Below, in pieces: positions 5,927-53,915 of a stretch of DNA of 54,054 nt. The notes under the pieces were generated by a model that ran no database searches, was not told the DNA's origin, and was given only the letters and a program-made list of their open reading frames with translations. The position numbers and the translations under genes were made by a program. How positions within the stretch are numbered: position 1 is the first letter of the stretch; the number at the start of each line of letters is the position of its first letter. The stretch comes from a virus (taxonomy: Duplodnaviria > Caudoviricetes), in IMG/VR virus record IMGVR_UViG_3300028091_000011, positions 1-54,054 of that record; one strand, written 5' to 3'.

Positions 5927-6946
5927 TTACGCGCCGACCAGTTCGACCGTCTTGCGCCACGCGATGTTGCGGAGTTCCGCCTCGCGTCCGAAGAGGTGCG
6001 AGTGGATGCGGGCATCGGACGAAGGTGCGCTACGCGCGGCGAGTTCGCTATGCTGGAGGAACTCGGTCACCGCGTTGTACGCGATCCAAGCGTTCGCACC
6101 GAACTGACCAGCCTCGCGGTCGAAGGTCTCGCTCATGCGGCGGAGCGCGGCGACACAGGTCGCCTTCTTCGTCTCCTCGCGCTTGTTGACGGGGTTCAGC
6201 GGGATTTCGCCGTACATCGTCTCAAGCACATCGACCCACAGCCCGCGAATCTGCTCGGCGTTCAGCGACTTCTTCGCCACGCCGTTGATGGCGATGGCGT
6301 AGTTGTCGGTCGCCTTCTTCCACGCCTTCGACACGCGCACCGCGTACTCGCGGTTCTCAAGGAAGTTGAGCGTGTGCTTGAGGCTCCACGCGAAGCCGTC
6401 CTTGCCGCCCTCCTGAAGAGCCATGCGGACGGTGTTCGCGCACACGGGGCGGATGCCCGACCACATTGACTTGTACGCGAGGGTTCCGTCATGCCCGTTG
6501 CACAGGATGAAGTAGGGCTTCACGAAGTCGCCCTTGCCTCCGATCTCAATGCCGTCCTTCGACCCGATGGCGGTGTACACGATGCGTCCGCCGCGAATCG
6601 AACCGAAGGTCTCGGCGCAACCGCCGATCTCCTCCGCGATCAACTGCGCGTCCTCCGCCATCTGGCGGTTCTGGAGCGGAGTCCAGTTGGACGGCTGGAC
6701 GGCGAAGATGTCGCCCGTGTCCTCGCGGATCACCATCTTGAAACGCTCGGTGGCGAAGGCGGTGGGCTTGTCGTCGCCGTCGATGTAACCCGACAGGCGG
6801 TTGGTCGTGACGATGTTCCAGTCCAGTCCCGACTCGCTGAACGCCTCCATCGGCATCATGTCGGTCTGGACGACCCGACCCTTGCCGTGCCAAGCGGCGG
6901 TGCGGCGGAGGATCAGGTTGTCGGTGTCGGTCATCTCGTGTGCCAT
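5927..6946 (-). CDS. DUF932-family phage/plasmid protein
   Basis: AWHGKG, ETFGSIRGGR, NGHDGT, IRPVCANT and AWIAYNAVTEF motifs. Confidence 0.88.
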   Translation of the reverse strand: MAHEMTDTDNLILRRTAAWHGKGRVVQTDMMPMEAFSESGLDWNIVTTNRLSGYIDGDDKPTAFATERFKMVIREDTGDIFAVQPSNWTPLQNRQMAEDAQLIAEEIGGCAETFGSIRGGRIVYTAIGSKDGIEIGGKGDFVKPYFILCNGHDGTLAYKSMWSGIRPVCANTVRMALQEGGKDGFAWSLKHTLNFLENREYAVRVSKAWKKATDNYAIAINGVAKKSLNAEQIRGLWVDVLETMYGEIPLNPVNKREETKKATCVAALRRMSETFDREAGQFGANAWIAYNAVTEFLQHSELAARSAPSSDARIHSHLFGREAELRNIAWRKTVELVGA

Positions 6947-7025
6947 TGCTCGTCTCTCCTATGCGTGTGCGGCGTTGCCGCGATTCCGATCAGTCGAGCC
7001 AGCCCGTTTGCTGTTCGACCCGCGT

Positions 7026-7053
7026 ACTATACCCCAATCGGCACAGGTGTCAA
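7026..7053 (-). promoter_or_regulatory. Leftward early sigma70 promoter
   Basis: TTGACA-N16-TATAGT. Confidence 0.8.
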
Positions 7054-7100
7054 GGGGTGTGAACAGAAAATGGGAGAAATAGATTCTTGCCGCGACCCAC

Positions 7101-7129
7101 TTGACAAGTGTTGATACTTGTGGTAGGGT
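7101..7129 (+). promoter_or_regulatory. Rightward early sigma70 promoter
   Basis: TTGACA-N17-TAGGGT with an upstream TG. The -35 lies inside the palindrome CACTTG-A-CAAGTG. Confidence 0.65.
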
Positions 7130-7153
7130 GTAAGCCTCACGGAAGGAGTCTTG

Positions 7154-7885
7154 ATGCCTACTCTCAAGAACGGCAAGTGGAGGATGCCCAAAGACAGCAG
7201 CATCCGACAATGGAAGAACACAAGCGAGTTTCCAGACTCGTGGGCAAAGGCAACGGTCGAGTGGCTGTGCGAGTTCTACGGAGTCCCTGCGGTGTCGATC
7301 ACCATCTGGGACGCGAAGAAGAGGCGCGGCAGCGGTACGGCGTTCCTGACCATGAACAGGGTTCATCTTTCCATCTCTCGGCGCAACTACCGCCGCGACT
7401 GGAAATACTGGAACATCTACTGGGATGTCCCGCGCACGGCGAACAGCGCGTGCGAGGCGTTCGTGTTCCTCGCGGCTCACGAGATCGCCCACATCAGTCA
7501 CGAGGGCAAGACGATCTACCGAACTTGCCAACAGGAGAGTTCGCTCCCGAACAAGCGCGACTGGCGGAACCGCATGGAGTGCCGCATTCAAGACATGGCG
7601 CAGAATGCGCTTGATGCCTACCGCGCGGGCGCATACAGGTGTCTCCTCGCGCATCACGCATCGTCCATCAGACGAGAAGCGGCGGCAAAGACCGCAAAGG
7701 CGGAGATGAAGCAAAGGGCAAGCACGGCAGAGGCTCGTGTACTCGCGCTGGAATCTCGCGTCGAGGTCTGGGACGCAAAGAAGCGCAGAGCGGAGAACGC
7801 GATCAAGAAACTACGCAGGAGCATCTCGGGAATACTGGCGGCGCAGAAGCGTGCCGCATTGAAAGCGGGCGCGAAGCCGCTATAG
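7154..7885 (+). CDS. HExxH-motif protein (putative zinc metalloprotease fold) with basic coiled-coil tail
   Basis: LAAHEIAH plus a downstream E (RMECR). AAGGAG RBS. Confidence 0.6.
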   Translation: MPTLKNGKWRMPKDSSIRQWKNTSEFPDSWAKATVEWLCEFYGVPAVSITIWDAKKRRGSGTAFLTMNRVHLSISRRNYRRDWKYWNIYWDVPRTANSACEAFVFLAAHEIAHISHEGKTIYRTCQQESSLPNKRDWRNRMECRIQDMAQNALDAYRAGAYRCLLAHHASSIRREAAAKTAKAEMKQRASTAEARVLALESRVEVWDAKKRRAENAIKKLRRSISGILAAQKRAALKAGAKPL

Positions 7886-7886
7886 T
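7859..7886 (+). promoter_or_regulatory. Promoter for a leaderless HTH gene
   Basis: TTGAAA-N16-TATAGT, with the ATG 7 nt downstream. Confidence 0.55.
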
Positions 7887-7893
7887 GTACCGA

Positions 7894-8094
7894 ATGCGGA
7901 ATATCTTGTCGGATCATGTCACGGTTGCCGACCTCGCGCGTATCTACGGGGTCACGCCTCGGCGCATCAGGGCAATCGCTGCAAACAGAAGCATCGAAGG
8001 CGAACGGGTTGGGCGCACGCTCGTCTTCAAGAAGAATCAGGTCGCCCAGTTCAGACCGCTTCCATGCGGTCATCGCGCTACGGGGCGCGGGTAA
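7894..8094 (+). CDS. Excisionase/MerR-like winged HTH DNA-binding protein
   Basis: VTVADLARIYGVTPRRIRAIA...GERVGRTLVF. Confidence 0.8.
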   Translation: MRNILSDHVTVADLARIYGVTPRRIRAIAANRSIEGERVGRTLVFKKNQVAQFRPLPCGHRATGRG

Positions 8095-8107
8095 GGAATG
8101 AGACGGA

Positions 8108-9046
8108 ATGGTCATCTCCCCACAGCAACTCGCTGATCGCAACAAGGGCATCGGCTCGTCGGACGCTGCGGCGATCCTCGGGTTGTCGTCGTACAAGACC
8201 CCCTACGACATCTGGCTCCAGAAGACTGGTCGCGTCGATGGCGGCGGTGCAGGCGAAGCCGCGTGGATCGGCACGATGCTTGAGAAGGCTGTCCTCGACA
8301 TGGCGGCGGTCAAGATCGGCAAGCCTGTCGTCGCGGCTCCAGACCACTCCGATGCGACCTTCGTTGACGGAATCCTCCGCGCGAATGTCGATGGCATGGT
8401 CGAGGCGTTTGAGCGCGGTCGTCCCATCGTGGAGTCCAAGACCACGGGTCAACTGAAGGACTGGGGCGATGCCGAAACCGATGGCGTTCCCGACCATGTT
8501 CTGGTTCAGGTGACGCATCAAATGATCTGTGCTGGCTCCGACCTCTGCTATGTGGCGCGGCTTGGGGCTGCATTCGGTCTGTCATTCGACATCTTCACCG
8601 TGCCTCTCGACCGATCCTTCGCGGAGGAAATCAAGTCGCGCCTTGGCGAGTGGTGGGACAACCATGTCGTGAAGGACACTCCGCCCGAGATCGTTGATGG
8701 TCAGGTTCCTTCGTTCGACCTTCTCCGCGCACGCAAGCGCGATGACGGGGTGATCGCGGAACTGCCAGAGGAACTGGTGATGCACGAGCGGGCTGCAAAG
8801 CAGCGGCTCGACGCTGCGGAGCAGGACTACGCGAACGCGAAGTCTCTGCTGGTCGCCGCGATGGGCGATGCGCCCGTAGGCATCGGAGCGGGAGTCCGCA
8901 TCACGGTCAGTCAGGTCAGCCGCAACGGGTTCGATACCGACAAGTGGAAGTTGGAGAACCCAGAGGCGGCGAAGAGGTACGCCAAGACGACCTCGTACTC
9001 CAAGATCGACATCCGCGATGTCGGTCGAGTCATCAGGTCGCGCTGA
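8108..9046 (+). CDS. YqaJ-like (lambda exonuclease family) recombination nuclease
   Basis: R.KGIGSSDAAAILGLS.YKTP...G..LE...ANVDG...ESKT...QV.HQM. Confidence 0.92.
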   Translation: MVISPQQLADRNKGIGSSDAAAILGLSSYKTPYDIWLQKTGRVDGGGAGEAAWIGTMLEKAVLDMAAVKIGKPVVAAPDHSDATFVDGILRANVDGMVEAFERGRPIVESKTTGQLKDWGDAETDGVPDHVLVQVTHQMICAGSDLCYVARLGAAFGLSFDIFTVPLDRSFAEEIKSRLGEWWDNHVVKDTPPEIVDGQVPSFDLLRARKRDDGVIAELPEELVMHERAAKQRLDAAEQDYANAKSLLVAAMGDAPVGIGAGVRITVSQVSRNGFDTDKWKLENPEAAKRYAKTTSYSKIDIRDVGRVIRSR

Positions 9047-9105
9047 TCCATTCACTCGCGGGCGGGCGCACGGACGCGCCTGTCAACCTTCTGTACGCGC
9101 AGCCC

Positions 9106-9134
9106 TTGACACGAGTCGAGGGCTGTGCTACAAT
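9106..9134 (+). promoter_or_regulatory. Sigma70 promoter for a leaderless transcript
   Basis: TTGACA-N17-TACAAT with extended TG, and ATG at 9141. Confidence 0.8.
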
Positions 9135-9140
9135 GTGGGC

Positions 9141-9398
9141 ATGAGCAAGCCAAAGCCAGACCATCTCTCCCCGACTGGAAGTCCGTACTGGACTGACGGC
9201 AACGGAGTTCCGCATCTCAACTTCGCATGGGCGGAGAGGCACTACGGGACGATGAGCGATGATGCTCTGCGCTGGAACATCGGTGACTGCCGAGCGGCGG
9301 TCAAGGCGAATCCAGACAATCCAAAGAACGGGCTGTACGAAGACACCGTTCATGTGATCGCGGGAATCCTGTCTCGCCGTAACAAGGAGAAGGCATGA
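9141..9398 (+). CDS. Hypothetical protein (MSKPKPDHL...)
   Basis: The ATG is 6 nt after the -10 element, and the stop overlaps the next start (ATGA). Confidence 0.75.
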   Translation: MSKPKPDHLSPTGSPYWTDGNGVPHLNFAWAERHYGTMSDDALRWNIGDCRAAVKANPDNPKNGLYEDTVHVIAGILSRRNKEKA

Positions 9399-10465
9399 GC
9401 AAGTTCATCTACAGTTCGATGTGGGAGTGGTCGCCATTGGCGGATGCTCTACATTCGTTTGTTGGGATGCCAGTCGTTGGTGAGCAAGGGCGCATTGTGA
9501 TTCCAACGCTTGACGAGATCGTCAGGGATCGCGAGGAGATGTTCGGCGCAAATCAGTTGCGCGATGGCATCAGACCGCCGCGCCTGATCCAGCCGCCAAG
9601 CGGCTTCACCGATCCGTACAAGTGGTGGGTTCTTGCGACCGAGACGGTCATCAGGGACAAGGACACGGACGCGGAGTTCGTGTCGCGCGGAGTCATGGAG
9701 GCGTTGCGTGAGCATGACGCGCCGACCTACTTCGTGAGTAACGAGATGATCGACGCGATGGAGCGAACCGACTTCGGCAACGCTCCGATGCGAGACATCC
9801 AATGGGCGCACGAGGGGATGCTGTTCATGCTCCCCGACCGACAGGACTCGTACTACGGGGCGGTCATGCGAGACCCCAATACGGGGAGCGCGTTCACAAC
9901 GAAGGTACGCGCTGTCGGCATCGGATTCGCCCGAGTCTGGTCAGAGGTCGAGAAGGGTGACGGTATCGCGGTGTTCATCGTGGACAGCGCGGGGGCTTGC
10001 TCTTGGGCTTTGATCCCGTTCATGGACACTTGGCAGGAGGCGATGGACTACATCGGCAAGCGCGACATGGTGGACGACGAGACGCGGAGGAAGTACCCGT
10101 GGCAGTCGAAACTGGCGGAGGTCGAGCGCGAGGCTTTGTTCAAGAACTGTTCGCTGATATTCAAGGTTCTCTGCCTCTGGAACTCCGAGCGGTCAGACGG
10201 TTCGTCGGAGATCGTCCAGCACGGAGGACGGATCATTCGCGCGGGCAACCCACGGCGAACCGACCGAAAGAGGCACGACCTCTGGAGCGGCATCCTGCTT
10301 CGGCTGAACGAGAGCGTTTCCGAGTCTGGCGAGAGCGGGGATGCCAGCGACCCCAAGGTGCGCCGACATTGGCGGCGAGGTCACTTCCGAAACCAGCCTC
10401 ACGGGGCTGGTCGATCCCTCCGAAGGTCTATCTGGATCAGACCGTACATGGCTGGTTCTCTGTAA
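9395..10465 (+). CDS. Hypothetical phage protein with C-terminal HWRRGHFR motif
   Basis: 356-aa ORF with an AAGGAG RBS and the basic motif RRHWRRGHFRNQ...IWIRPY common in phage proteins. Confidence 0.8.
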   Translation: MSKFIYSSMWEWSPLADALHSFVGMPVVGEQGRIVIPTLDEIVRDREEMFGANQLRDGIRPPRLIQPPSGFTDPYKWWVLATETVIRDKDTDAEFVSRGVMEALREHDAPTYFVSNEMIDAMERTDFGNAPMRDIQWAHEGMLFMLPDRQDSYYGAVMRDPNTGSAFTTKVRAVGIGFARVWSEVEKGDGIAVFIVDSAGACSWALIPFMDTWQEAMDYIGKRDMVDDETRRKYPWQSKLAEVEREALFKNCSLIFKVLCLWNSERSDGSSEIVQHGGRIIRAGNPRRTDRKRHDLWSGILLRLNESVSESGESGDASDPKVRRHWRRGHFRNQPHGAGRSLRRSIWIRPYMAGSL

Positions 10466-10539
10466 CCGTCAACGATTGACGGCTTCAAACCGAGGAAGCA
10501 GCCTTTCTGCCCGTATTTTACGAGCGGAAAGGCGTTTCC

Positions 10540-11313
10540 ATGCCAAGGACGGTACGGATAGTCGCGATCAGTTGTACCCACGCCCCATTCACCCCGCCAA
10601 GCACGGTGAAGTGGCTGTGCGACACCATCTCTGGACTGAAGGGGATCGACTGGTTCGTTCACCTTGGCGATCTGTTTGAGGCTGGTGCTGCAAGCGTCCA
10701 CGCCAGCAGCGCGGAGTATTCACACACGCTTGAGGACGAGTACCAGTTTGGTCACAACTTCCTCAAGTCGATCCGCGAGTGCCTGCCGAAGAAGGCGCAC
10801 ACGCTGTGCCACCTTGGGAACCACGACGACAACATCCTGACCCAAGACCCGCGCCGAGTCCCCTCGCAGTTGCGCTCACTCGTTGACTGGCGCAAGCACG
10901 AGAAGTACGGCAAGGAGTTCAGCCGATGGGTATGGAAGCCCTATGTCAAGGGCAGGGATGGGGTCTCGTCGTTCGGTCAGGTTCGACTCATCCACGGCTT
11001 CGACGCTGGAGCAAACAGCGACGAGTTGGAAGGCTTGCAGATCGCAAATCTGTTCGGCGGTGAGGCGAACCAGTTGGTCGTGCGGGGACACACGCATCGT
11101 CCGATGGAGGTGACGCAGGCGAAGAGGACGGCGCGAATACCGCTGCCGTACTGGTACGCCAATGTCGGCACAGCCGGTCCGCTGCAACCGACTTGGATGA
11201 TGCGAAAGGACACAAGCCAATGGGGAACCGCGCTGATCGTCATCGACGCGGTTGTTGACTACCGCCCCGCAGGAGGACGGCAATGGGACGCTCGACTCGT
11301 AAGAATGCCATAA
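10540..11313 (+). CDS. Calcineurin-like metallophosphoesterase
   Basis: ISCTH, LGD, GNHD, HG and GHTH motifs in order. Confidence 0.88.
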   Translation: MPRTVRIVAISCTHAPFTPPSTVKWLCDTISGLKGIDWFVHLGDLFEAGAASVHASSAEYSHTLEDEYQFGHNFLKSIRECLPKKAHTLCHLGNHDDNILTQDPRRVPSQLRSLVDWRKHEKYGKEFSRWVWKPYVKGRDGVSSFGQVRLIHGFDAGANSDELEGLQIANLFGGEANQLVVRGHTHRPMEVTQAKRTARIPLPYWYANVGTAGPLQPTWMMRKDTSQWGTALIVIDAVVDYRPAGGRQWDARLVRMP

Positions 11314-11618
11314 AGGACAGGATGCGCGTCATCCTGAACGGGAAGCGTTGGTTCATCTGGTTCGTGCGTTCAAGGGAGATTCCCTCCGACCGCTACGGCG
11401 ACTGTGGCTATTCGGGTTCGACTCCGATCATCCGAGTCCGCCGTGCGCTGCAAGGTCGCATGGCGTTGAATGTGCTGATCCACGAGGTGTTGCACGCCTC
11501 GCGTCCCGAACTGGCGGAAGAGGCTGTCACCGAGACCGCCAACGACATAGAGAAGGTGCTGTGGCGGCGCGGCTACAGGTTGATCCCAAAAGAAAGTTCA
11601 GAAAAATCTCCCGATTGA
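11283..11618 (+). CDS. Small HExxH metalloprotease-like protein
   Basis: YGDC...I.V...LIHEVLHA...EEAV. An alternative start lies at 11322. Confidence 0.75.
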   Translation: MGRSTRKNAIKDRMRVILNGKRWFIWFVRSREIPSDRYGDCGYSGSTPIIRVRRALQGRMALNVLIHEVLHASRPELAEEAVTETANDIEKVLWRRGYRLIPKESSEKSPD

Positions 11619-11630
11619 CCGATACACCAC

Positions 11631-11658
11631 TTGACAGGAGTGTAGTGCCTGCTATGAT
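11631..11658 (+). promoter_or_regulatory. Sigma70 early promoter
   Basis: TTGACA-N16-TATGAT with extended TG. The 20 bp around the -35 (11619-11638) are repeated at 54033-54052. Confidence 0.8.
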
Positions 11659-11703
11659 GCGCGTGTCGATCAAGGGGATCGACTCAACTTCAGGAGACGA
11701 GCA

Positions 11704-11961
11704 ATGACGATCAACTTCCAGCACACTCTGAAGAACGGCATGACGGTCAGCATCACCGCGACCGTCTGTGACGGATCGGTCGCTGACTACAGCGCGACCG
11801 CGAAGGTCGAGAAGAACGGTGTCGAGCGCGAGGTTCTCCTCGCGGAGCGCGGCAGCGCGTTCGACCGAGAGTTCATTCCCGCCATCGCCAATCGCATGAG
11901 CGCGGTGACGGTCGCGGAGTGCGACGACGACGAAGACGACTTCTCTCCCGACTGGGAGTGA
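11704..11961 (+). CDS. Hypothetical protein with acidic tail
   Basis: AGGAG RBS, directly downstream of the promoter. Confidence 0.8.
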   Translation: MTINFQHTLKNGMTVSITATVCDGSVADYSATAKVEKNGVEREVLLAERGSAFDREFIPAIANRMSAVTVAECDDDEDDFSPDWE

Positions 11962-11966
11962 GGTCG

Positions 11967-12075
11967 CCGCGACTGGGCAGAGTCGCGAACGAACCCCCTA
12001 GACCACGGGCTGGCTGCTCGTCTCGCCCGTTGGTCGCCCCTCCCGTCAGCCGCTTGCGAAGCGGGAGGGGTCTTT
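11967..12075 (+). ncRNA. Structured 3'-UTR or candidate antisense sRNA ending in a terminator
   Basis: Three hairpins. The middle one (12001-12035) carries TGCTCGTCTC, and the last is CCCCTCC...GGAGGGG-TCTTT. Confidence 0.45.
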
Positions 12076-12114
12076 GAACTACATTCGGCATCCATGTGCC
12101 GTCAGGAAGGAACC

Positions 12115-12447
12115 ATGTCAGGAAACCCAAGCATCGTCGCGATTGCGGGCAAGCGAGTGGATCGTGCGGAGTTCATCCGCTCGTTTCGGCAGCGCGGCAT
12201 GAACCTCATCATCGAATCAGCGCACAAGGCTCCGCCGTCGAACACGATTCCAGAGATCGTCGGCGGGCTTGACCGAGCCAAGACCATGCTGTGCATGGTT
12301 CACGCCGTGGACACGGGCGCGTCGAGCGCGACCATCGCGCTGGAGGTGAATGGCGACGAGATGGAGGTCGCCGTCCCCAAGAACCTTGAGCGCGAGGTCG
12401 AACTGGCTTTCCGCTACAACTGGGTCAAGCAACTGGAACCCGCATGA
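12115..12447 (+). CDS. Hypothetical protein
   Basis: AGGAAGG RBS and protein-like composition. Confidence 0.7.
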   Translation: MSGNPSIVAIAGKRVDRAEFIRSFRQRGMNLIIESAHKAPPSNTIPEIVGGLDRAKTMLCMVHAVDTGASSATIALEVNGDEMEVAVPKNLEREVELAFRYNWVKQLEPA

Positions 12448-12451
12448 AGGC

Positions 12452-12592
12452 GGGAGGCTTGAGGGCGCACGATGCGTCCAAGTCAACTTCGGAACTTGGT
12501 AGGTGGGCGGGTCGCCGCAAGCCTCCCATGTAATGGGCGGGCGCATCCTTGCGCCCTTACGGAACCGCAACCTGATCGTACTGTCGGGTTGC
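12452..12592 (+). ncRNA. Candidate structured cis-element upstream of the SSB-like gene
   Basis: A 10-bp closing stem, GGGAGGCTTG/CAAGCCTCCC, encloses three hairpins and is followed by two more hairpins. Confidence 0.4.
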
Positions 12593-12609
12593 TCAACAAC
12601 GGAGATTCA

Positions 12610-12855
12610 ATGGCTGGATACGAACACAAAGAGAACAGCGGGTCGCTCTTCCGCAACGACCGCAAGGAGAAGGAGACGCATCCCGACTACAAGGGAGCGT
12701 GCCTCGTCAACGGCGTGAAGATGGAGATCGCCGCGTGGATCAAGGAGCGCAACGATGGCTCCAAGTTCATGTCGCTTCGCTTTGAGGAGCCGCGTGAACG
12801 AACCGCCGCGCCGAAGAAGCCAGCCGACGAGATGGACAGCGACATCCCGTTCTGA
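12610..12855 (+). CDS. Small SSB-like protein (DUF736-like) with DIPF tail
   Basis: GSLFRND.KE...HPDYKG...AAW...FMSL, with the acidic C-terminus DSDIPF typical of SSB partner-binding tails. Confidence 0.8.
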   Translation: MAGYEHKENSGSLFRNDRKEKETHPDYKGACLVNGVKMEIAAWIKERNDGSKFMSLRFEEPRERTAAPKKPADEMDSDIPF

Positions 12856-12856
12856 A

Positions 12857-13255
12857 TCACTTCAGGACTGCGGATGACTTGAGACTCCCGCGCTGGTCGC
12901 GGGAGTTTTCTTTCTCGCGGGCGATTGCGAGTTCGGCGTTCATCAGGCTGATGGTGTTGGCGACAGCCTGCGCGAGTTGCGGCGGGATGGGCTTGCCAGC
13001 ATCGGCAAGTCGCTTGAACCGTTCGATGTCGTCCTGTGGCATGGAGGCGCAGATTAGCGAGACGGCTTCACCGAAGACCGCAAACACCTCTGACGGGTAC
13101 ATGAGCGCGTTTGTCTCATGCTGACCGATGACGATTCTCACGAGAAGTGCGTCGATCATGCCGCGATCATGTTGGATCGTCAATGTAACAAAGCCGCTTG
13201 CGTTGTGAGCAAGCCGTTCGTTTGTGCCGATGTTGTCGATTGTTGTGTATGCCAT
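12857..13255 (-). CDS. Hypothetical protein (MAYTTIDN...)
   Basis: Isolated minus-strand ORF filling a gap, with AAGG immediately before the ATG. Confidence 0.6.
   Translation of the reverse strand: MAYTTIDNIGTNERLAHNASGFVTLTIQHDRGMIDALLVRIVIGQHETNALMYPSEVFAVFGEAVSLICASMPQDDIERFKRLADAGKPIPPQLAQAVANTISLMNAELAIAREKENSRDQRGSLKSSAVLK
12884..12913 (+). terminator. Intrinsic terminator
   Basis: ACTCCCGCG-CTGGT-CGCGGGAGT-TTTCTTT. Confidence 0.8.
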
Positions 13256-17786: not shown

Positions 17787-20700
17787 ATGGCAGGGATGCT
17801 CGACCAAATCACAGAACTCAAGTCCGCAGAAGTTATCGACACACCAGAAGGTGTCGAGCGGTTCCTTGCCGAACTCAAGAACGCGGTAAGCGAAAACGGA
17901 GACACCTCCGTAATGCAGACCGCTGACGGTCGTCTTTGCGTCACGAAGCAGAACCCCGCTACCGCGATGTCTGATCCGATGAGTGCGCCCTCGCGTGAGC
18001 GCATTCAGCAGATGGTCGCGGAGCGGGGAATGCCTTGGGACGAGAAGTACGCCGAGCGCGTCATTCCGTGGTGGGCTTCGGATGAGCGCGTTGACCGTCA
18101 GGGCGACATCGTTCTCCAGAACTGGAAGTTCGATGACTACCAGAACAACCCCTTGATGCTGTACGCGCATCGGTGGGACGATCCGCCGATTGGCACGGTT
18201 CTGAACTGGGAGGTCATGCCGCGAACGAGCCGCGCCTACAACGGTCGAAGCCTTCGCCTGATGCCCCTGTTCGCGACCAAGGATCAGTACGAGTGGGCTG
18301 ACACGATCTTCCGACTCGCCAAGGCGCGGTTCCTGCGGACTGGCTCCGTTGGGTTCTATTCGGACAACATCATTCAGGTTCGCGACCCCAACGAGCGGAT
18401 GCGTATGGGGCTTGGCAACATGGGCGTGATCTACGACAGAAACAACCTGATTGAGTGGACGGTGGCTCCCGTGCCTGCAAATCAGGGTGCGCTCCAGAGC
18501 CTTTCGCTCGTGGCACGCAAGGGTCTGCTGAAGGGCGACGACCTCCCTGTCGTCACGGACATCTTCAAGTCGTCCGTGAAGCGCGGGGTTGGAGACGCGG
18601 AGAAGATTCGCGACATTGAGAAGGCGGTCGGAAACTACTGGAACCGCCTCTTCCCAGCGACCAAAACGGTGTCAACCGTTGACACGAAGGCACTCCCGCA
18701 GTCGTACCGAGAGGCTGACGGCTCCCAGCGGTGCGAGAACTGCGCCTCCTACGAGCCTGACTCGACCGATGAGAAGATGGGCGTGTGCAGGCAGTACAGC
18801 GCAACTTGCCGAGCCAACATGACTTGCAACTCGTGGAAGGCGAAGATGCCTGTTGAGATTACGAAGGAAGGCGTTGCTGTTGCTGTTCCAGCACCCGCTG
18901 TCGCTCCAGTTGTATCTATGCCTGTTGCTGACTCTGGAAGTGGCATTACTGGTACTACTTCTGGAGGTCGCACAACTGGCGGAGCGTCAAGTCCAGTTGA
19001 CAATCAGCGTCCCGAGGCTGTTCCGCAGCGATGGGACGATGCGATGGACTTCATCAAGTCGCGCTACGAGGATCATCAGGCGGCTGTCGGAAACGATCCG
19101 CGCAAGCAAACCACGGAAGGCAAGTTGCAACAGGTGTTCGCGCGTGGCGTGAATGCTTGGGACGATGCCAACGAGGAGCAGCGCGGAGGTCTGACTGGCG
19201 AGGACTGGGGCTACGCGCGGGTGGAGTCGTTCCTGAACGCGCTGCAAAGCCTGCGCTTTGAGGGCGAACCTCACGATCAGGACTTGCTGCCTGCCGAGCA
19301 TCCCAAGTCCGAGCGCGAGAAGGTGAACAAGGCGGTTGTTGGTTACATCAACCGTGGCATGAACCGATTCATCAAGGGCGACTTCGTTTCGTGGCGGACG
19401 AAGGGCGGCATGGCTGTCGGTCAGATTGAGCAGATCGACATGAAGGGCATGGTTGCCACCGACAGCGAGGAGATGGAGGCGATGCCTGAAGACCCTGTGG
19501 CGACGATCAACCCGATTGTCGAGCAGGAAGGCAAGAAGATGGGCTGTGGCAAGCCGCGCCTGATGCCGTTCTCGCGCATCAAGATGGCTCCCAATCAGTT
19601 CCCCGAGCCGTCCAACTGGCGTTGCATGGATTCGCAGCGCAAGCGGATCGGTGACATGGTGATGTCGCACAACAAGGAGGTTGGCAATGATCCCATTCGT
19701 CTCGCATCCGCTGGCACGGCTGTTCATGTCTTTGAAAGAGGCATGGGGTCGTATCTGGAAGATCGCCGTGGCATCTCCGATGCAGGCTCCGCCGAGCAGT
19801 ACGCCGAAGCGCGTCTCGCGTCCTACCTCGACGCGCTCCGCAGGGGCGGCTTCCAAGGAGACTCGCACGACGAAGACCTCCTCCCACAAGACATTGCGGG
19901 ATCGCGCAGGGCGCAAGCCATCAAGGTGATGGTCGCGCGTGCGGCGGCATACGAAGGCATCGACTTCGTGCCGCCCGAGGGCGCACGCACCGAGGCGCAG
20001 CGCGGTCTTGACTGGAGGCGCGAGTACGGGCGTGGCGGCACGGAGATCGGTGTCGCCCGCGCACGCGACATTGCCAATGGCAAGAACCTGTCTCCCGAGA
20101 CTGTTCGCCGCATGAACTCGTACTTCGCACGCCACGAGGTGGACAAGAAGGGCGAGGGATTCAACCCAGACGAGAGCGGCTATCCGTCAGCGGGTCGAAT
20201 CGCGTGGGCGTTGTGGGGTGGTGATGCGGCGATGGGGTGGGCTGCAAAGGTGATGCGCCAGATGGAGGCGCGTCAGACCAAGATGTTTGAGCCGATTGGC
20301 GTTGTCGGCGGGCTTCGCGGTCGCATGAACGAGGCTTCAGACCGTTATCAGGAGATTTACCGTTGGGTCAAGACCGCCGATCCCGAGATGGTCAAGAAGG
20401 CTGTCGATGGCATCGGAGTGCGGACGGATGTCGATTACTCGACGCTCTGGCAGGACGAGCCGAAGGCGAAGTTCGTGTCCAGCGTGCTGCTGGCTGCGGA
20501 GATCGGAGGCGATCCTCGCGATCCCAACGAGACGCTCAAGTTCGTTCGGGGCTGCGTGTCCAAGGCGATTCGCCACCGAGCGGTCGAGCAGATCACGAAG
20601 GCTGCTGCAAAGAGAACTTCGGAGTTGGACTCGCTTGCGTCCGCGCTCAAGGAGTTCGATGAATCGAAGATCGACCGTGATGAGAACGGTCGGTTCAGCG

Positions 20701-21500: not shown

Positions 21501-21503
21501 CAG

Positions 21504-38165: not shown

Positions 38166-41100
38166 CCGTCACGCAATCGTCATTCGTGTCTCGCGCTGGC
38201 ACGCCAGCACCCTTGTCAGCGAACGGTGTGAATCCAGCAGTTCCGCTTGTGGAGCGATGCTGGGAGCCGCAGGCGTTGTTCATCCACGACTGGAGTCAGC
38301 CAGTCACGCTTCGCAGCAAGTGGAATACCGTGGTCAGCAAGAGCCGTACTGGAGAAATCCAGAGGATCGGCTTGAGCGACAAGCCGACCCTGACTCTTGA
38401 TTCCGAAAGCCGTTGCTTCAATCAGAATCATTGGAGCAACCTAAACGAGATGCTGTCGAAGCAGGAGGTTTGCCGATACCTGTCGCCGCTGCATTGCGAT
38501 CCGATTCATGGCGTGACCCTGTTCGACCCGCAGTATCACCGCTTCGCCGTCACGAGCGACTTGAATACGCGAAGGTTGTTTCAGGGTCAGAACGCCATGA
38601 TCGCAACCGTCCCATCGACGGCTATGACATCGGAGTTCACTTGCTCTGAAGTTACTGATGTCAATAGGACTACGAAGCGAATCACATTGGAGACTCCGCT
38701 TCGCAGGGCGCAGTATGAAGAGCCGAAGATCGACAAGTCGATCTACGCAGTTACAAGCACAAGTGCCATTCCGTCTGGTGGTTATGGATACGCAAGTGGC
38801 TCGACGGTAACGATGTGGTGTCGTAAGTCGTGGACGGCTGGCAATCCGACGACTGTTGGATCGCGTGCTTCAGATGGTGGGCAGACGACATCCGTTGCTG
38901 GCGTTGAACTTGTCGTCAACAGCAAGGCGCAGGCTGTTCTCATCAAGCCAAACGATCAGATCATCCATATCGGCTACACGATGGCTCGTAACAGCCAGTC
39001 AATGACCCTAACGCCAACGGTCATCAAGGCAGTCAAGGGTGCTGGCGGCGCAACCACACAGGTATCTCCAACTTGGACGCTGGTCGCGCTCAATGGCGGA
39101 GTCACCGATTGGGTTGAGAGCGGTACTGTCGGTGGAAGCACGGCTAATCAACCGACCAACTTCAGTCATCAGCGCGTTGGAGCGGCTACCCCAACGACAG
39201 CGCAAGTGAGAACTTGCCGCGTTCAGGTTCGCACTACGACCGTCACGCAGGCAATGATCGACACCCTTCGTGCAGCCGATACTGGCATCACAGGGAATGG
39301 CGCGGCTCAAGTCTATGTTGAGGCTACCGTTGCTGGATCGGCTGGCACAAGCACTACGACCGACAACGCGCTTGCCCATGTCGTGCTTGTGGTCAGAGAC
39401 GGATTTCTGAAGCCAACTGGTGCTACGGCATCGCTAATCGCCGCCGTTGATGCGGAGATGATGACACACCTGTCTGCGTCAGCACCAGATACCAACCAGA
39501 ACGACTATCCATCTGGGGCTTCAGCCTATCCGTTGTATACGCAGTCGATTTCTCTTACTTCTGCGGCTCCAAAGTCAAAGACGCTTGCGATCCAGTTCTT
39601 GAGTTATGGGCGTTCATCACAGCAAGGCGACCCAGCGATTGCCGTTTCGTCGCCACTTGCTGCAACTCTGCTGTACCCAACATCACAGTCGTATCCCGAT
39701 GGATCGTCAACTCCATCGAACACCAACCTTTCTCGTGCGTTTGTGTCGTCGTCGGCTACCGATGTCACGACAATGATTCACGAGATCGTTGACGCATCAG
39801 CCGTTGAAGCCGAGCCGATCACGGGAAACCTGAAGAACTACGGGTTCAGCGGTACTTTTGGATACACGAGTGGTGTGCCGACCACGCCGAATGTCACGCC
39901 GTTCCTGTTCAACCTTGGTCTGGTGCTGAATCCTTCGATTCAGAAGCCGCTTCGCTGCTATCCGCTGATGGAGAGCGATCCATCGCCGTCGAATCCGCAG
40001 TACGGAACGCCAGACACAAGCACGATTGGAAAGGTGTCCGTCAGCGCATCGCAGTCGAGCGGGATGGTCGCCTTGGATTCGCCTGACACGATGATCCAAA
40101 CTGGATGGGATTACGCCGCATATCCGCCGTTCCAGTCGAATCCAAAGCGAGTCAACTCTGGTTCGGTGTGCAACACGAGCAGCGACTATGCGACCACGGC
40201 AATCGTCGCGCCTCTTCTGACGGGCAAGTTTGACTACGCGACAGGAATCACAATCGGCGCATCGTCATCGGTTGACATGGAGACAGTTGGCATCGGTCGA
40301 TCAGTCGAGGGGTATCAGGAAGAGCCGCGCAAGGAGTTCTCCGTGCAGGCGACATTCCTCAAGCGAACGGACGCTTTCAAGTTTCTTCAACTATGGAACA
40401 ACCGCCGTGGTCGTTTGGCTCCCGTTTGGTTCCCAAATCCATCCGACAGCCTCAACGCGCTGTATTCAGCCTTCGACAACGAAATCTACTTTGCCGCAAA
40501 TGACTCCAATGTCCTTCCGTCCATTACGCACGGAGCGAAGTTTATCTACATCAGGACGACAGGTGGCACTTCATACATCTTGTCGGTGAGTGGATGGACA
40601 AGCGGGCAAGGGTTCATCGTGGCAACCATTGACACCACATTGCGTTCTGATGGAACGCAGTTGTGCAACCTTGATCCAGCGGTTGCTAGCGCGATCCAGA
40701 CAAAGACTGTTGCGCGAATCACGACCGCGCATCTTTGCTACTTCGACAACGACGAGTTGACCGAGCAATGGCGCACGGACGAGGTGATGTCCGTGCAGTT
40801 CAAACTGACGGAACACAGCGGCGTATTCAAGCCAGAGATGGAGGCTGGAGTTGCGACTCCAACCACGGGATGCGGATACTGCTGCGGTTCAGTCGATCCG
40901 TGTCCATGTACTGGCGGTAGCGCGTTCGGCTGTCCTACGACGATCAACTCGCCAAATGCGTGCTGCATTTGCCGAACATCTGGTTTGAAGTTGCGCGTCA
41001 CGGTGTTTTGCTACGACCCCTGCTACAACATTGAAGAACCAGATAACGATCCTCTTGATTGCCCGGGTTGTTCGTGTACGAAATGCACGCTTGCTGGTAG

Positions 41101-46971: not shown

Positions 46972-49230
46972 ATGGCAAACACCATTCGTATCAAGCGGCG
47001 TGGTTCTGGCATTGCTGGCGCACCAGCGTCTCTCGCAAGCGCAGAGTTGGCGTTCAACGAGATCGACAACACGCTCTACTACGGCAAGGGCGACAGTAGC
47101 GGAACCGCGACGAGCATCGCTGCCATCGGCGGTGACGGCGCGTTCGTCTCGCTGTCTGGCACGCAGACGATCAGCGGCAACAAGACCTTCTCTGGAACGG
47201 TATCGCTTGGCTCTTCGGCAACTGCGACTACGCCTGCAAGCAACAGCAACGACACCACCCTCGCGACGACTGCCTTCGTCACGACCAAGACCACGGGTTT
47301 CGGAAGCGGATCGGTGACCAGCGTTGGTCTGTCCTTGCCCGCCATGTTCTCGGTCACGGGTTCTCCCGTCACGACCAGCGGCACGCTCACGGCAAGCCTT
47401 GCTTCGCAGACCGCCAACTATGTGTTCATCGCTCCGAATGGAACGGCTGGCGCACCGACCTTCCGCGCACTCGTTGCAGCCGATCTTCCGTCCCTGACGG
47501 GAACCTACCTCGGTCTGTCTGCGGGCGGAACCGTCTCTGGAAACACGACCTTCAGCGGCACGGTCGCGCTTGGCGCATCGGCTACGGCGACCACCCCATC
47601 GACCATCGACAACAGCACGAAGGTCGCAACCACCGCGTATGTCCAGAATCAGGGCTTCCTCACTACAGCGGTGTCGAGCGTTGGGCTTTCGCTCCCCAAC
47701 ATCTTCACGGTGTCTGGCTCCCCAGTCACCCTGTCGGGAACGCTGACGGCTTCGCTGGCATCGCAGACGACCAACACCGTCTTCGCCGCGCCGAACGGCT
47801 CGACGGGCGCACCCACCTTCCGTTCGCTTGCTGCGGCTGACATCCCGACCCTGACTGCTGCGAAGATCAGCGACTTCGACACGCAAGTCCGCACCTCGCG
47901 TCTGGATCAGATGGCTGCGCCGACTGCAAGCGTGGCGTTCAACAGCCAGAAGATCACGGGTCTTGCCGATCCGACGAACGCGCAGGACGCGGCGACGAAG
48001 TTGTATGTCGATAACTCCCGTCTGGGAATCGACTTCAAGGACAGCGTTCGCGTTGCTACCACGGCGAACATCACGACCATCGCTGGCGGCGCACCGTCAA
48101 CCGTTGACGGAGTGAGCCTCGTGGCGAACGACCGAATCCTCGTCAAGAACCAGACGACCGCCTCGCAGAACGGCATCTACAAGGTCGATACGGTTGGAAC
48201 GGGAGCGAACGGCAGTTGGTCGCGAACGACCGATGCTGACGGCTCTCCCGCTGGCGAGTTGACCTCTGGTGCGTTCGTGTATGTCGAGGAAGGCACAGCC
48301 AACGCGCAGGATCAGTATGTCATCACGACTACTGGCACGATCACCGTTGGCACGACTGGCATCACATGGGGTCTGTTCTCTGGCGCGGGCAAGATCACCG
48401 CTGGTGCTGGTCTGTCGAAGACGAAGGACACCCTCGCGTTATCCCTTGCTGGAAGCAGCGGTCTTGAGACGACGAGCGGTCTTGCCCTGACCAACACGGG
48501 CGTTTCCGCTGGCTCTTATCAGAGCGTCACCGTCGATGCGAAGGGTCGAGTGACGGCTGGAACGAATCCGACCACCCTGTCTGGATACAACATCACGGAC
48601 GCGCAGTCCTCTGACCCGACCCTCACCGCTCTTGCAGGGGTCACGACCGCCGCCGACCAGATCATCTACGCGACTGGCTCCGACACCTTCACCACGACCG
48701 CGCTGACCTTGACGGCTCGTAGCCTCCTTGACGACACCTCGACCTCCGCGATGCGGACGACCCTTGGTGTGGCAATCGGCACGGATGTTCAGGCTTACGA
48801 TGCGACCCTCGCCGCCCTCGCTGGCGTGACGACCGCCGCAGACAAGTTGATCTACGCCAGCGGCGTGGACACCTTCCTGACGACCGACTTCACCTCGACC
48901 GCCCGCACCCTGCTGGACGACACCAGCACGAGCGCAATGCGGACGACCCTCGGCGTTGCCATCGGAACCGATGTGCAGGCGTACAACGCCGCCCTTGCCT
49001 CCATCGCTGGTCTGACCACGCTGGCGGACAGGATGATCTACACGACCGCCTCTAACACCTACGCGGTCACCACCCTGACCTCGTTCGGTCGAAGCCTTGT
49101 TGACGATGCGGACGCATCGACGGCACGCACGACCCTCGGTCTTGGAACGATGGCTACGCAGTCTGCAAGCAGCGTGAGCATCACGGGCGGCAGCATCGAC
49201 GGCATCACCATCGACGGCGGAACCTTCTGA
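46972..49230 (+). CDS. Tail fibre protein with internal repeats
   Basis: MANTIRIKR...ELAFNE, DAATK.YVD and VTVDAKGRVT fibre motifs, ending IDGGTF. Confidence 0.85.
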   Translation: MANTIRIKRRGSGIAGAPASLASAELAFNEIDNTLYYGKGDSSGTATSIAAIGGDGAFVSLSGTQTISGNKTFSGTVSLGSSATATTPASNSNDTTLATTAFVTTKTTGFGSGSVTSVGLSLPAMFSVTGSPVTTSGTLTASLASQTANYVFIAPNGTAGAPTFRALVAADLPSLTGTYLGLSAGGTVSGNTTFSGTVALGASATATTPSTIDNSTKVATTAYVQNQGFLTTAVSSVGLSLPNIFTVSGSPVTLSGTLTASLASQTTNTVFAAPNGSTGAPTFRSLAAADIPTLTAAKISDFDTQVRTSRLDQMAAPTASVAFNSQKITGLADPTNAQDAATKLYVDNSRLGIDFKDSVRVATTANITTIAGGAPSTVDGVSLVANDRILVKNQTTASQNGIYKVDTVGTGANGSWSRTTDADGSPAGELTSGAFVYVEEGTANAQDQYVITTTGTITVGTTGITWGLFSGAGKITAGAGLSKTKDTLALSLAGSSGLETTSGLALTNTGVSAGSYQSVTVDAKGRVTAGTNPTTLSGYNITDAQSSDPTLTALAGVTTAADQIIYATGSDTFTTTALTLTARSLLDDTSTSAMRTTLGVAIGTDVQAYDATLAALAGVTTAADKLIYASGVDTFLTTDFTSTARTLLDDTSTSAMRTTLGVAIGTDVQAYNAALASIAGLTTLADRMIYTTASNTYAVTTLTSFGRSLVDDADASTARTTLGLGTMATQSASSVSITGGSIDGITIDGGTF
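47173..47847 (+). repeat. Two ~120-aa repeats in the fibre
   Basis: SGN.TFSGTV...V.SVGLSLP..F.V.GSPVT.SGTLTASLASQT...GAPTFR.L.AAD occurs twice. Confidence 0.9.
48613..49146 (+). repeat. Three 62-aa (186-nt) repeats in the fibre
   Basis: Units start at 48613, 48799 and 48985: L.ALAG.TT.AD..IY...RTTLG. Confidence 0.9.
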
Positions 49231-52551: not shown

Positions 52552-52554
52552 ATC

Positions 52555-52586
52555 AAAAGAGCCGCACGGCTTCAGCCGAGCGGCTC
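52555..52586 (-). terminator. Terminator between convergent genes
   Basis: GAGCCGC...GCGGCTC stem with an inner hairpin and a TTTT tail on the minus strand. Confidence 0.7.
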
Positions 52587-52611
52587 CGAGGAGAAAGATG
52601 GCTGTGCAGCG

Positions 52612-52809
52612 TTACGGGCGCGTTGCGATGTTCTGATTCGCGGCGGCGCGGGCGGCACGGCGTTCGGAGTTGTTGGTCTTCACGCGACCACCGCCTCCGC
52701 GACCTCCGCCGCCGACAAACACACCCGGGACGACTTCGATGGCTTGCTGCCGTCCTGCGCGATTCGATCCGAAACCCGGCGGGTCAACAAGTCTTCCAAA
52801 TCGGCTCAT
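52612..52809 (-). CDS. Gly/Arg-rich 65-aa peptide, paralog 2
   Basis: AAAGGAG upstream, and it shares MSRF...AANQNIATR with its neighbour. Confidence 0.8.
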   Translation of the reverse strand: MSRFGRLVDPPGFGSNRAGRQQAIEVVPGVFVGGGGRGGGGRVKTNNSERRAARAAANQNIATRP

Positions 52810-52823
52810 GTCCTGATTCTCCT

Positions 52824-53024
52824 TTAGCCACGAGTGGCGATGTTCTGGTTTGCAGCCTCACGAGCCAACCGCCGCTCGTTGGTCTTCGGGCGACCTCCCG
52901 TGATTCCTGCGCCACGGTCACGCGCGAACACGCCAAGGGGAAGGGCGGGCTTGTTGGGATTGGCGATGCCTCCGCCGCCGAAGCGGTCAGTACCAGCAAA
53001 GCCCGATGGATTGAATCGGCTCAT
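52824..53024 (-). CDS. Gly/Arg-rich 66-aa peptide, paralog 1
   Basis: TAGAAT lies 6 nt before the ATG, and it shows synonymous divergence from paralog 2. Confidence 0.8.
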   Translation of the reverse strand: MSRFNPSGFAGTDRFGGGGIANPNKPALPLGVFARDRGAGITGGRPKTNERRLAREAANQNIATRG

Positions 53025-53044
53025 GGCACGATTCTACCGCCTCG

Positions 53045-53473
53045 TCAGTAGGTTCGGGCATTCCACTCGCTTGGAACGCCGTTGATGAGCATGGACAGGT
53101 AGTGGGCTACGCGGCAGTCCTTGCCCCCGATGTTCCATTGGGTGACGCTTCCGACAGGAAGGTCTTGCTTCCAGTCGTAGATGGTGGCGACCCCCCTGAA
53201 CACCGCCCCGTCCTCCTCGTCTTCGGCGGCGTAGACCCTGATGTGCCACTCCGCCCTGACCTTGCCGTCCCCGTTGGCTTCGGTGTATCGGTAAGGTGCG
53301 CCGAAGAGTTCCACTAGCCGCGCGAACGGCGTTGTGATACAGCCCTGAAGGGAAGTCCCCTCCGTCCGCTCCATGAGGGAATCGGCGGCTCTCTGGCTGC
53401 TGTTGTGACTGGAGGCGGAGATGGTGAGACCGTCCGCCGAGAGTTCGATGTCGTCTGTTCCAGCGATGTTCAT
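53045..53473 (-). CDS. Conserved phage hypothetical protein
   Basis: GTSLQG...LFG.P....DGKV..EW...ATIYDWK...WNIGG, with an AAAGGA RBS. Confidence 0.8.
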   Translation of the reverse strand: MNIAGTDDIELSADGLTISASSHNSSQRAADSLMERTEGTSLQGCITTPFARLVELFGAPYRYTEANGDGKVRAEWHIRVYAAEDEEDGAVFRGVATIYDWKQDLPVGSVTQWNIGGKDCRVAHYLSMLINGVPSEWNARTY

Positions 53474-53484
53474 GGCTTGTCCTT

Positions 53485-53862
53485 TCAGTCGATGCGGGAG
53501 CCAGCGCACACCTCGTATCCAGCGTTCGACAGCGCGTCCGCCACGGCGTGGGCGTAAGCCTCCTTCATGGCGAGGCTCTGCCTGAAGTCGCTGATGTTGA
53601 CCCAGTAGCAGCGGTGGTACGAGGACACGGAGCCGATCCCGCTCTTCTTGAGGAAGGTGACGAGCGATCCACGGGCGGGACGAATCTCCAGCCACGCGAA
53701 CCCGCACACGCCATCGGGAACGATGTAGGAACCCTCGCGCCCGACCACGACCATCGGCTTGATGGTCTCGCGGACGCGGGCGACCGCCTCCAGCCCAGCG
53801 AGGTGGGCGATGTTCCAGTCGCGGGCGACTTCGCGGGCGGTCTTCTTCACGGCGATCTTCAT
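53485..53862 (-). CDS. Conserved phage hypothetical protein
   Basis: DGVCGFAW.....QS...KEAYA.A.A..L...G....SRID, with an AGGAG RBS. Confidence 0.8.
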   Translation of the reverse strand: MKIAVKKTAREVARDWNIAHLAGLEAVARVRETIKPMVVVGREGSYIVPDGVCGFAWLEIRPARGSLVTFLKKSGIGSVSSYHRCYWVNISDFRQSLAMKEAYAHAVADALSNAGYEVCAGSRID

Positions 53863-53915
53863 GGCTCGTCTCCTGTTCTTGCGTTCCGCCAGTCCCCTTG
53901 ACCAGCGATGCGACG

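Follow-up and report, generated by a model that had tools for sequence, protein, structure and literature searches.

A putative antisense hairpin-terminator module complementary to a start box of early genes in an uncultured caudovirus

Results

A start box of early genes and its complement in a 3′ untranslated region

The 54,054-bp virus contig IMGVR_UViG_3300028091_000011 (Caudoviricetes), analysed here over the entire stored record and hereafter called the window, carries a short motif immediately upstream of several early genes and the complement of this motif in a hairpin within a 3′ untranslated region (UTR). The motif, GAGACGAGC, is present in four copies. Three of them, here designated start boxes, lie 1 nt before the ATG of promoter-proximal first genes, and the fourth is found as the complement in the hairpin at 12001–12035 (Table 1). 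The three genes encode a DUF932 protein, a protein of 85 amino acids (aa; gene 11704) and a 125-aa protein (gene 53862). An initial annotation, made from the sequence alone, had described a shared start context at these genes with a partial version at yqaJ, had placed each of the three genes first after a strong promoter and had noted a 10-nt complement in a hairpin before a terminator. All of these features are present, the promoters being sigma70-like sites with 10–11 of 12 consensus matches.

Table 1. Positions of the start boxes, leaders, genes and 3′-UTR elements in the window (+, plus strand; -, minus strand).
Feature	Position	Strand	Sequence or description
DUF932 gene, 339 aa, first in leftward early operon	5927–6946	-	Pfam PF06067, E 1.5e-28
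DUF932 start context	box 6956–6948, ATG 6946	-	AGGAGAGACGAGCAATG; 1 nt between box and ATG
5′-terminal leader hairpin, DUF932 mRNA	6993–7019	-	loop AAACGG; kept in L005–L007, one stem pair changed to G-U
Sigma70-like promoter, DUF932 unit	7026–7053	-	TTGACA-16-TATAGT, 11/12 consensus matches
yqaJ start context	start 8108		GAGACGGAATG; partial box
Possible fourth target	9106–9156	+	promoter 9106–9134, TTGACA-17-TACAAT with TG, 11/12
Sigma70-like promoter, 85-aa gene unit	11631–11658	+	TTGACA-16-TATGAT with TG, 11/12
5′-terminal leader hairpin, 85-aa gene unit	11665–11683	+	GUCGAUC-AAGGG-GAUCGAC
Gene 11704 start context	box 11694–11702, ATG 11704	+	CAGGAGACGAGCAATG; from sequence
85-aa protein gene	11704–11961	+	no Pfam or PHROG family; 12 homologous clusters
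First 3′-UTR hairpin H1	11967–11988	+	from folding
Single-stranded box	11993–12001	+	ACCCCCUAG; CCCC(N)UAG-like, just upstream of the antisense hairpin
Antisense hairpin H2	12001–12035	+	loop with GCUCGUCUC (12016–12024), complement of the start box
Intrinsic-terminator-like hairpin	12036–12071, element to 12076	+	short tail UCUUUG
125-aa protein gene	53485–53862	-	function not assigned
Gene 53862 start context	box 53872–53864, ATG 53862	-	CAGGAGACGAGCCATG; from sequence
5′ leader hairpin, 125-aa gene unit	53887–53907	-	CGCUGGUC-AAGGG-GACUGGCG
Sigma70-like promoter, 125-aa gene unit	53916–53944	-	TTGACA-17-TAGGAT, 10/12

In the 3′ UTR of gene 11704, TGCTCGTCTC occupies positions 12015–12024 in the upper part of hairpin H2, and the terminator follows directly. 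All 10 nt of this segment are complementary to the box plus an A at DUF932 and gene 11704; at gene 53862 the complementarity covers 9 nt. As in loop-presenting antisense RNAs, the 9–10 nt complementary to the ribosome-binding site (RBS) are exposed in a hairpin loop (12011–12024). The 119-nt 3′ UTR folds at -61.2 kcal/mol (z = -3.1), and none of 200 shuffled sequences was as stable. The unit has the single-transcript layout known from icaR of Staphylococcus aureus, its promoter (11631), box (11694), loop (12016) and terminator (12036) all being on one strand.

The initial annotation also listed the 6-mers CGTCTC and TCGTCT 3′ of the DUF932 gene. Both exist (5925–5920 and 5915–5910), but they are too short to be counted as part of the system, and CGTCTC is lost in L006 and L007, two of the related contigs described below. 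In the same region, the loop GUCUGGU of a small hairpin (5913–5907, minus strand) exactly complements ACCAGAC (5884–5878, minus strand), a loop sequence of the strong terminator hairpin next to it (5895–5866). Both loops are kept in L006 and L007, and a loop–loop contact or an alternative fold is possible.

Four copies of the 9-mer in the window compare with 1.15 expected, and 3 of 100 shuffled sequences reached this number. Degenerate copies showed no excess: 14-mers with at most three mismatches numbered 25 in the window against 25.8 expected. Their placement is far from random: a called start follows on the same strand within 20 nt of three of the four 9-mers and of 4 of the 15 AGACGAG 7-mers, a condition that 1.1% of strand positions satisfy. 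At the methylase start chosen by the gene caller (1561–1548, minus strand), which is preceded by AGACGAGG, the 7-nt box match also serves as the GAGG Shine–Dalgarno sequence of the gene; this start is not promoter-proximal.

The leaders of genes 11704 and 53862 can be aligned over their full length and share the order promoter, hairpin approximately at the predicted transcript start, spacer and box. The 5′ hairpin of the ERF leader resembles that of DUF932, with loops UAACGGG and AAACGG, respectively. Part of the similarity between leaders thus reflects common descent, as the null hypothesis of the initial annotation had it.

The early leaders all begin with a hairpin approximately at the predicted transcript start, with loop AAGGG or the variants AAUGGG, AAACGG and UAACGGG (11665–11683, plus strand; 53907–53887, 7019–6993 and about 5540–5522, minus strand; in relatives, L165 near 12661, minus, and 12822, plus, and L156 near 1737, minus). 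Their stems vary under the AAGGG loop (GUCGAUC/GAUCGAC, CGCUGGUC/GACUGGCG, GUCAGC/GCUGAC); within the window and its relatives, three further stems carry the loop of 11665–11683. This hairpin may be a stabiliser of the 5′ end or a factor site. Pairing of the GGG in these loops with the CCCC(N)UAG box of the 3′ UTR was considered and rejected, as only 4–5 bp are possible. An 11-mer, ACGGGCUGGCU in RNA sense, is common to the DUF932 leader hairpin (7009–6999, minus strand) and the 5′ side of H2 (12005–12015, plus strand). In relatives of the L001 type both copies bear one and the same G-to-A change (GGCUGGCU to GGCUGACU), for which common origin or gene conversion is possible.

Conservation of the start box

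Relatives of the window were a small group of metagenomic contigs obtained by protein- and pattern-anchored scans. One contig (L009) is near-identical, its 85-aa protein being 99% identical to that of the window. In the L001 type (L001–L003, L117, L005–L007, L287) identities are 75% for the 85-aa protein, 92% for DUF932 and 93% for the helicase, and in L010 the 85-aa protein is 65% identical. The G002 type (L004, L165, L166) has 100% identical DUF932 and helicase proteins and is mosaic elsewhere; the helicase of L156 is 85% identical.

The box stays constant in leaders that otherwise diverge. The DUF932 leader of L005–L007 shows many spacer substitutions and a 6-nt deletion that removes AGGAG, while GAGACGAGCAATG is intact (13/13). 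L010 retains all of GGAGACGAGC (10/10), despite a different -10 hexamer and differences at 5 of the 10 spacer positions directly preceding the box. The start box of gene 11704 is unchanged in both L001 and L010 despite the diverging spacer before it. Altogether, (G)AGACGAG followed by 0–3 nt and a start codon precedes eight different first genes in four genome types, taken from the window, L117, L165/L166, L156 and L010. These genes encode proteins of 339, 85, 125, 132, 138, 75, 90 and 106 aa, the last one with the variant GAGACGAGU. GGAG is missing from the box subtype GAAACGAGACGAGCAATG, so that a strong Shine–Dalgarno sequence does not by itself explain the box. The comparison of leaders indicates that it is selected in its own right.

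The 14-mer GGAGACGAGCAATG was found in at least 117 stretches of IMG/VR, and L117 was the sole relative among 80 loci checked; the box is not a widespread phage RBS. A 15-mer of the B-type terminator (see below) gave no new relatives among 79 new IMG/VR loci checked. A protein-pattern scan of genome contigs for prophage relatives yielded no confirmed locus, and the leader pattern, present in at least 120 stretches of genome contigs, was not accompanied by the features of the group in any of the matches listed. In an unrelated viral group (L157, L160, L162 and L163 from IMG/VR, GC 0.63–0.66), a GC-rich hairpin with loop CAAG is followed by GAGGAGACGAGCCATG and a conserved gene; the start context is identical to that of gene 53862, which is probably a coincidence.

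Conservation of the antisense loop

Six variants of the antisense hairpin were compared (window, L117, L010, L165, L287 and L156). All six have the loop core CUCGUCU, followed by C in five, on stems that differ by six double-sided pair changes and two wobble changes with no broken pair. The stem pairs were tabulated from explicit coordinates, as a joint MAFFT alignment of the hairpins gave inconsistent stem columns. In type A modules, located after the 85-aa gene, an inner G-C pair is replaced by A-U in L117 and a C-G pair by U-A in L010, one outer pair becomes a wobble and the CUCGUCU loop is kept. Type B modules follow the rusA-like gene that ends the DUF932–helicase–primase operon, with the hairpins CCAUCGC-UCCCGCUCGUCUC-GCGAUGG in L165, CCAUUGC-UACUCGUCUC-GCGAUGG in L287 and UCACUGU-CUCGUCUC-ACAGUGA in L156. 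Flanks and terminators of L165 and L156 are homologous, yet four of the seven stem pairs are changed on both sides. A conserved seed on a variable scaffold, as looked for in small RNAs derived from 3′ UTRs, is therefore present, with CUCGUCU in 6/6 variants and changing stems.

Other parts of the module recur as well. A CCCC(N)UAG-like box precedes the hairpin in five aligned module variants and in L287, and all six variants have a GC-rich terminator hairpin, whose tail, UCUUUG in the window, is short there and extends further in L117 and L010. In each module the T-rich tail follows on the sense strand of the upstream genes. As a permutation control, 139 other orderings of CTCGTCT were analysed, and only TCGTCTC, which is shifted by 1 nt, lay in hairpin loops at 5/5 non-redundant loci; these five loci are related and represent about two or three independent lineages. 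Kept on changing scaffolds, the loop itself is under selection.

Contigs of the L001 type bear both modules, type A on L117 and type B on L287. On these separate contigs of similar origin, taken as one phage type, a genome type can apparently carry both. The record of the window is not a closed genome: its left end truncates a minus-strand gene (2–196), and its right end truncates a second copy of the 11590–11638 promoter region (54004–54052; 71% identical) that points off the end. In G002 and L156, the gap corresponding to the ends of the window contains a second antisense module along with primase-like and rusA-like genes. The window genome may thus hold a second module in its missing end, at the type B site of G002 and L156.

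Duplex energies and loop accessibility

Duplexes between the loop and the start regions of the 59 called genes were ranked by energy. The top four values were -20.1, -19.8, -19.5 and -19.5 kcal/mol, followed by -16.6 kcal/mol, and all four genes are first genes behind promoter-like sites. The three box regions take ranks 1, 3 and 4 (-20.1, -19.5 and -19.5 kcal/mol). Rank 2 (-19.8 kcal/mol) belongs to gene 9141, in which bases 9144–9153 complement the H2 loop in its 5′ part. With an ATG about 7 nt past the -10 hexamer, this gene, also encoding an 85-aa protein, is a candidate for a leaderless mRNA. The homologue in L117 has AAGACGAGC right after the ATG instead. This single comparison hints at a fourth target kept in a different register. 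The mean unpaired probability of the loop core was 0.94–1.0 in L165, L156 and L010 and 0.58 in the window.

RNA-library contigs

Near-identical DNA was found in river metagenomes and in six river metatranscriptome runs, and assembled contigs of four RNA libraries (X15–X18) were compared with the predicted promoters. Around gene 11704, contigs start at 11671 (X17), 11677 (X18) and 11620 (X16), and the transcript is predicted to start near 11665. Leftward contigs end at 7003 (X15, followed by adapter sequence) and 6973 (X17, X18), with a predicted start near 7019. The stretch from 7003 to 7103 or 7148 is uncovered in three of the four runs, and about 11428–11671 is also uncovered. Around the promoter at 9106, contigs break at 9078–9087 and resume at 9155–9197 in three of the four runs. 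The contig breaks fit the predicted promoters and put the 5′ hairpins at transcript ends, which is a weak hint. The X17 contig 11671–12943 and the X18 contig 11677–12148 span both box and loop, a contig not being proof of a single molecule.

Genome context

Proteins encoded in the window include a portal protein with a Mu-F-like domain, a major capsid protein, DUF932, an ERF recombinase, a YqaJ exonuclease, a helicase and a DNA methylase, together with a ParB-N-like protein that scores under the Pfam cut-off. The 59 genes of our own gene calling comprise early genes at 193–11961 and 52612–53862, and between 12115 and 52551 every gene except one lies on the plus strand. A blastn search of 5800–13000 against 50,697 phage records gave no match, and the capsid protein is <60% identical in 80/80 matching records (22–32% among the 12 matches listed). 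These comparisons indicate an uncultured phage without a close cultured relative. A scan of the whole window against Rfam 15 at gathering thresholds gave no match, and a scan for tRNA and tmRNA genes found none.

About 40 kb of plus-strand late genes lie downstream of the terminator at 12036, and no promoter-like site above 9/12 was found in the range examined (20001–40000). Expression of the late genes may rely on transcripts that start at the 11631 promoter and read past this terminator, which is bridged by RNA contigs (see Discussion); the layout of promoter, open reading frame and terminator is reminiscent of a late promoter with antitermination, similar to PR′-tR′ of lambda. Two repeat arrays were also seen among the plus-strand genes. 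At 27510–31247, four tandem paralogous genes (277, 315, 271 and 363 aa) have N-terminal and internal repeats in common (families D2–D6), and at 48594–49151 three tandem 186-nt repeats, the second and third 73% and 60% identical to the first, lie inside a 752-aa gene (46972–49230).

Discussion

The arrangement in the window and its relatives suggests a device of two parts. One part would be the start box (G)AGACGAG(C), which in early sigma70-type units lies 0–3 nt upstream of the first gene's start codon; the other would be a portable 3′-UTR module at the ends of early units, made up of the CCCC(N)UAG box, an open-loop hairpin with CUCGUCU(C) and an intrinsic terminator. With moderate confidence we propose that initiation on early mRNAs is blocked when the loop of this hairpin-plus-terminator binds their start box, in trans on several of them and perhaps in cis as well. 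Pairing would extend over 7–10 bp (about -19.5 to -20 kcal/mol in the window), with the same transcript or other early mRNAs as the partner. The duplex would cover the ribosome landing site before the AUG and thereby switch off translation of the promoter-proximal early genes. As the module would be made only after the early unit has been transcribed to its end, it could serve as negative feedback or as a timer.

The proposal builds on the sequences and their conservation, the covarying stems, the common strand, the open loops in predicted folds and the RNA-library contigs that break at predicted promoters. From these we infer that the motifs pair in vivo, that repression is the effect and that the module can act in trans as a released 3′ fragment. 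RNA–RNA pairing is an economical explanation because the two conserved motifs are exact complements, both lie on the early-sense strand and one of them sits in an open loop before a terminator. Antisense pairing at ribosome-binding sites is an established cause of repression. The duplex would end 0–1 nt before the AUG, within the region required by the 30S subunit, and repression would therefore be expected.

Several points weigh against this proposal. The comparative set is small, with about four genome types and two or three module lineages, and the window alone excludes chance only modestly; the decisive support comes from the relatives, with which the observation stands well beyond chance. 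Box and loop cores are both invariant, hence there is no true covariation between them, and where the loop flanks have changed (L010 and L287) complementarity amounts to 7–8 bp instead of 9–10 bp, the box having no compensating change. The loop in the window is partly closed by a weak 3-bp inner helix, and the box itself is about half open in the predicted leader folds (0.45–0.51). A nested fold of the whole 416-nt mRNA did not contain the box–loop pairing, and nested co-folding did not put the three box genes on top (gains of -8.5 and -8.4 kcal/mol for two of them, gene 11704 outside the top 10). These misses were not counted as evidence because neither method can represent kissing of a strand into a closed hairpin loop. 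The expression data, being assembled contigs, hold no levels, strands or exact ends, and three of the contigs (X15 9943–13000, X17 11671–12943 and X18 11677–12148) bridge the terminator into the genes from 12115 onward. It follows that termination is incomplete or that longer transcripts contain the module as well.

Other explanations have to be considered for the same observations. The loop might pair within its own transcript only, folding back onto the start box at the 5′ end as in icaR and tuning translation or decay of that mRNA without any regulon. In both contexts, namely the window's 85-aa unit and, in G002 and L156, the DUF932 operon, the transcript that ends in the module does begin with a box gene, and the icaR precedent shows that such pairing blocks initiation and creates a substrate of RNase III (PMC3868564). 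However, box and module are about 7.3 kb apart on the operon of G002, and the box is also found on units without a module of their own, namely window gene 53862 and three L165 genes (132, 75 and 138 aa). The conservation of the box in these units would be left unexplained, and we consider a purely cis-acting loop unlikely. It is also conceivable, with somewhat lower probability, that box and loop have independent functions and are complementary by coincidence. The box would then be a translation-initiation element, either an enhancer or a site for a protein or ribosomal component, and the loop a protein-binding or processing site. Its location at the position of a ribosome-binding site, with GGAG in one subtype, would agree with this, as would the conserved start boxes of Cluster K mycobacteriophages, whose partner is unknown (PMC3203893), and pairing was not directly observed. 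Nevertheless, two separately conserved motifs of 7–9 nt would have to be exactly complementary by accident, and the subtype GAAACGAGACGAGCAATG does without GGAG.

The exact 9-mer lies in both orientations near transcription signals and the phage encodes a ParB-N-like protein, below the Pfam cut-off as it is, so that GAGACGAGC might be an operator for a DNA-binding protein of phage or host that works in either orientation, with 12016–12024 as merely another copy. This is very unlikely in view of the strict polarity of a non-palindromic motif: the box is always in sense, 0–3 nt from the start codon, in all box-bearing leaders compared, whereas 6/6 module copies are antisense and lie in a loop on a covarying stem, a constraint on a folded single strand. 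The smallest probability is assigned to chance combined with hitch-hiking, in which the leaders spread with a promoter cassette and the complementary loop is coincidental. The end-to-end alignment of leaders 11704 and 53862, the repeated promoter region (11590–11638 versus 54004–54052) and the only mildly unusual 9-mer count in the window speak in its favour, but three unrelated stems, from two genomic contexts, bear the unchanged loop core, the permutation control was clean and the box persists amid changing leader bases.

The antisense regulon put forward in the initial annotation is retained here in its central part, an antisense relation at the RNA level between the 3′-UTR loop and the shared early start context. 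The annotation had named joint conservation of loop and leaders in related phages as a check; the loop core proved invariant in six variants with covarying stems and the box was kept in diverging leaders. Its null explanation of leaders co-duplicated with promoters accounts for the similarity of the leaders but not for the conserved complementary loop. The suggested analogy to type I toxin mRNAs was abandoned. The 85-aa product is predicted to fold into a four-stranded sheet and a helix with a disordered acidic tail (AlphaFold2, mean predicted local distance difference test score 79) and is not a small hydrophobic peptide; its model had no match in the PDB at E ≤ 0.001 (best E 0.076). Other box genes encode DUF932 (339 aa) and the 125-aa protein. 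Likewise, yqaJ was dropped as a target, its duplex (-14.7 kcal/mol) ranking 12th of 59.

In a broader and considerably more tentative reading, which at present we find rather doubtful, a start box with its mirror loop at transcript ends would be a general, so far undescribed timing device of phages: the finished early transcript releases a silencing RNA, with apparently two modules per genome, one of which, placed last on a 7-kb operon, would act as a transcription-completion clock. Proteins such as repressors, nucleases and modifiers of RNA polymerase are the usual explanation for the shut-off of early phage genes. If the pairing proposed here is true, it would represent a purely RNA-encoded feedback that can be read from the sequence, in which the box marks the genes and the 3′-UTR loop silences them. 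The module of about 75 nt would be a compact and portable part for synthetic control of translation, and comparing sequences would suffice to detect such devices in uncultured phages.

By mechanism, the closest known system is the c4 RNA of phages P1 and P7. It contains short sequences, probably in loops, that are complementary to the ribosome-binding region of a phage mRNA and block its translation; presentation of such a complement in a loop is the common feature. There, c4 serves one operon (ant) in immunity, whereas here one loop matches several unrelated first genes. c4 has its targets downstream and is released from the transcript by processing, while the element described here is a 3′-UTR hairpin with a terminator. 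In icaR of S. aureus, a short 3′-UTR motif pairs with the Shine–Dalgarno region of its own mRNA, which prevents formation of the initiation complex and yields an RNase III substrate (PMC3868564). The layout of the 85-aa unit is equivalent, but icaR is a single host gene with a generic Shine–Dalgarno target, in contrast to a phage-specific box on many genes and a portable module. If our proposal is true, pairing between 3′ and 5′ UTRs would be extended from this one bacterial gene to a multi-gene phage regulon.

The box itself is best compared with the start-associated sequences (SAS) of Cluster K mycobacteriophages, conserved asymmetric boxes a few nucleotides before the start codons of non-structural genes of different families, with an RNA or protein as the unknown partner; several of these genomes have one inverted SAS copy away from any gene start (PMC3203893). 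SAS are 13 bp long, differ in sequence and occur in many more copies per genome, whereas the box described here is restricted to promoter-proximal first genes, and the available part of that paper describes no complementary hairpin loop (PMC3203893). As (G)AGACGAG(C) does not match the 13-bp consensus given there, it is an analogue of SAS rather than a member. A loop that reads a start box would, if true, offer a testable explanation for start-associated boxes whose partner has been unknown since the mycobacteriophage description (PMC3203893). Judged by sequence, the device appears to belong to none of c4, icaR and SAS, and a narrow literature search, covering its sources in part, gave no account of a start-box regulon that spans several genes and has a portable 3′-UTR hairpin-terminator as its match. 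A further parallel is DicF, a regulatory RNA from the end of a prophage operon transcript ending in a terminator-like hairpin. DicF targets host mRNAs (ftsZ), whereas the predicted targets of the module described here are the early genes of the phage itself.

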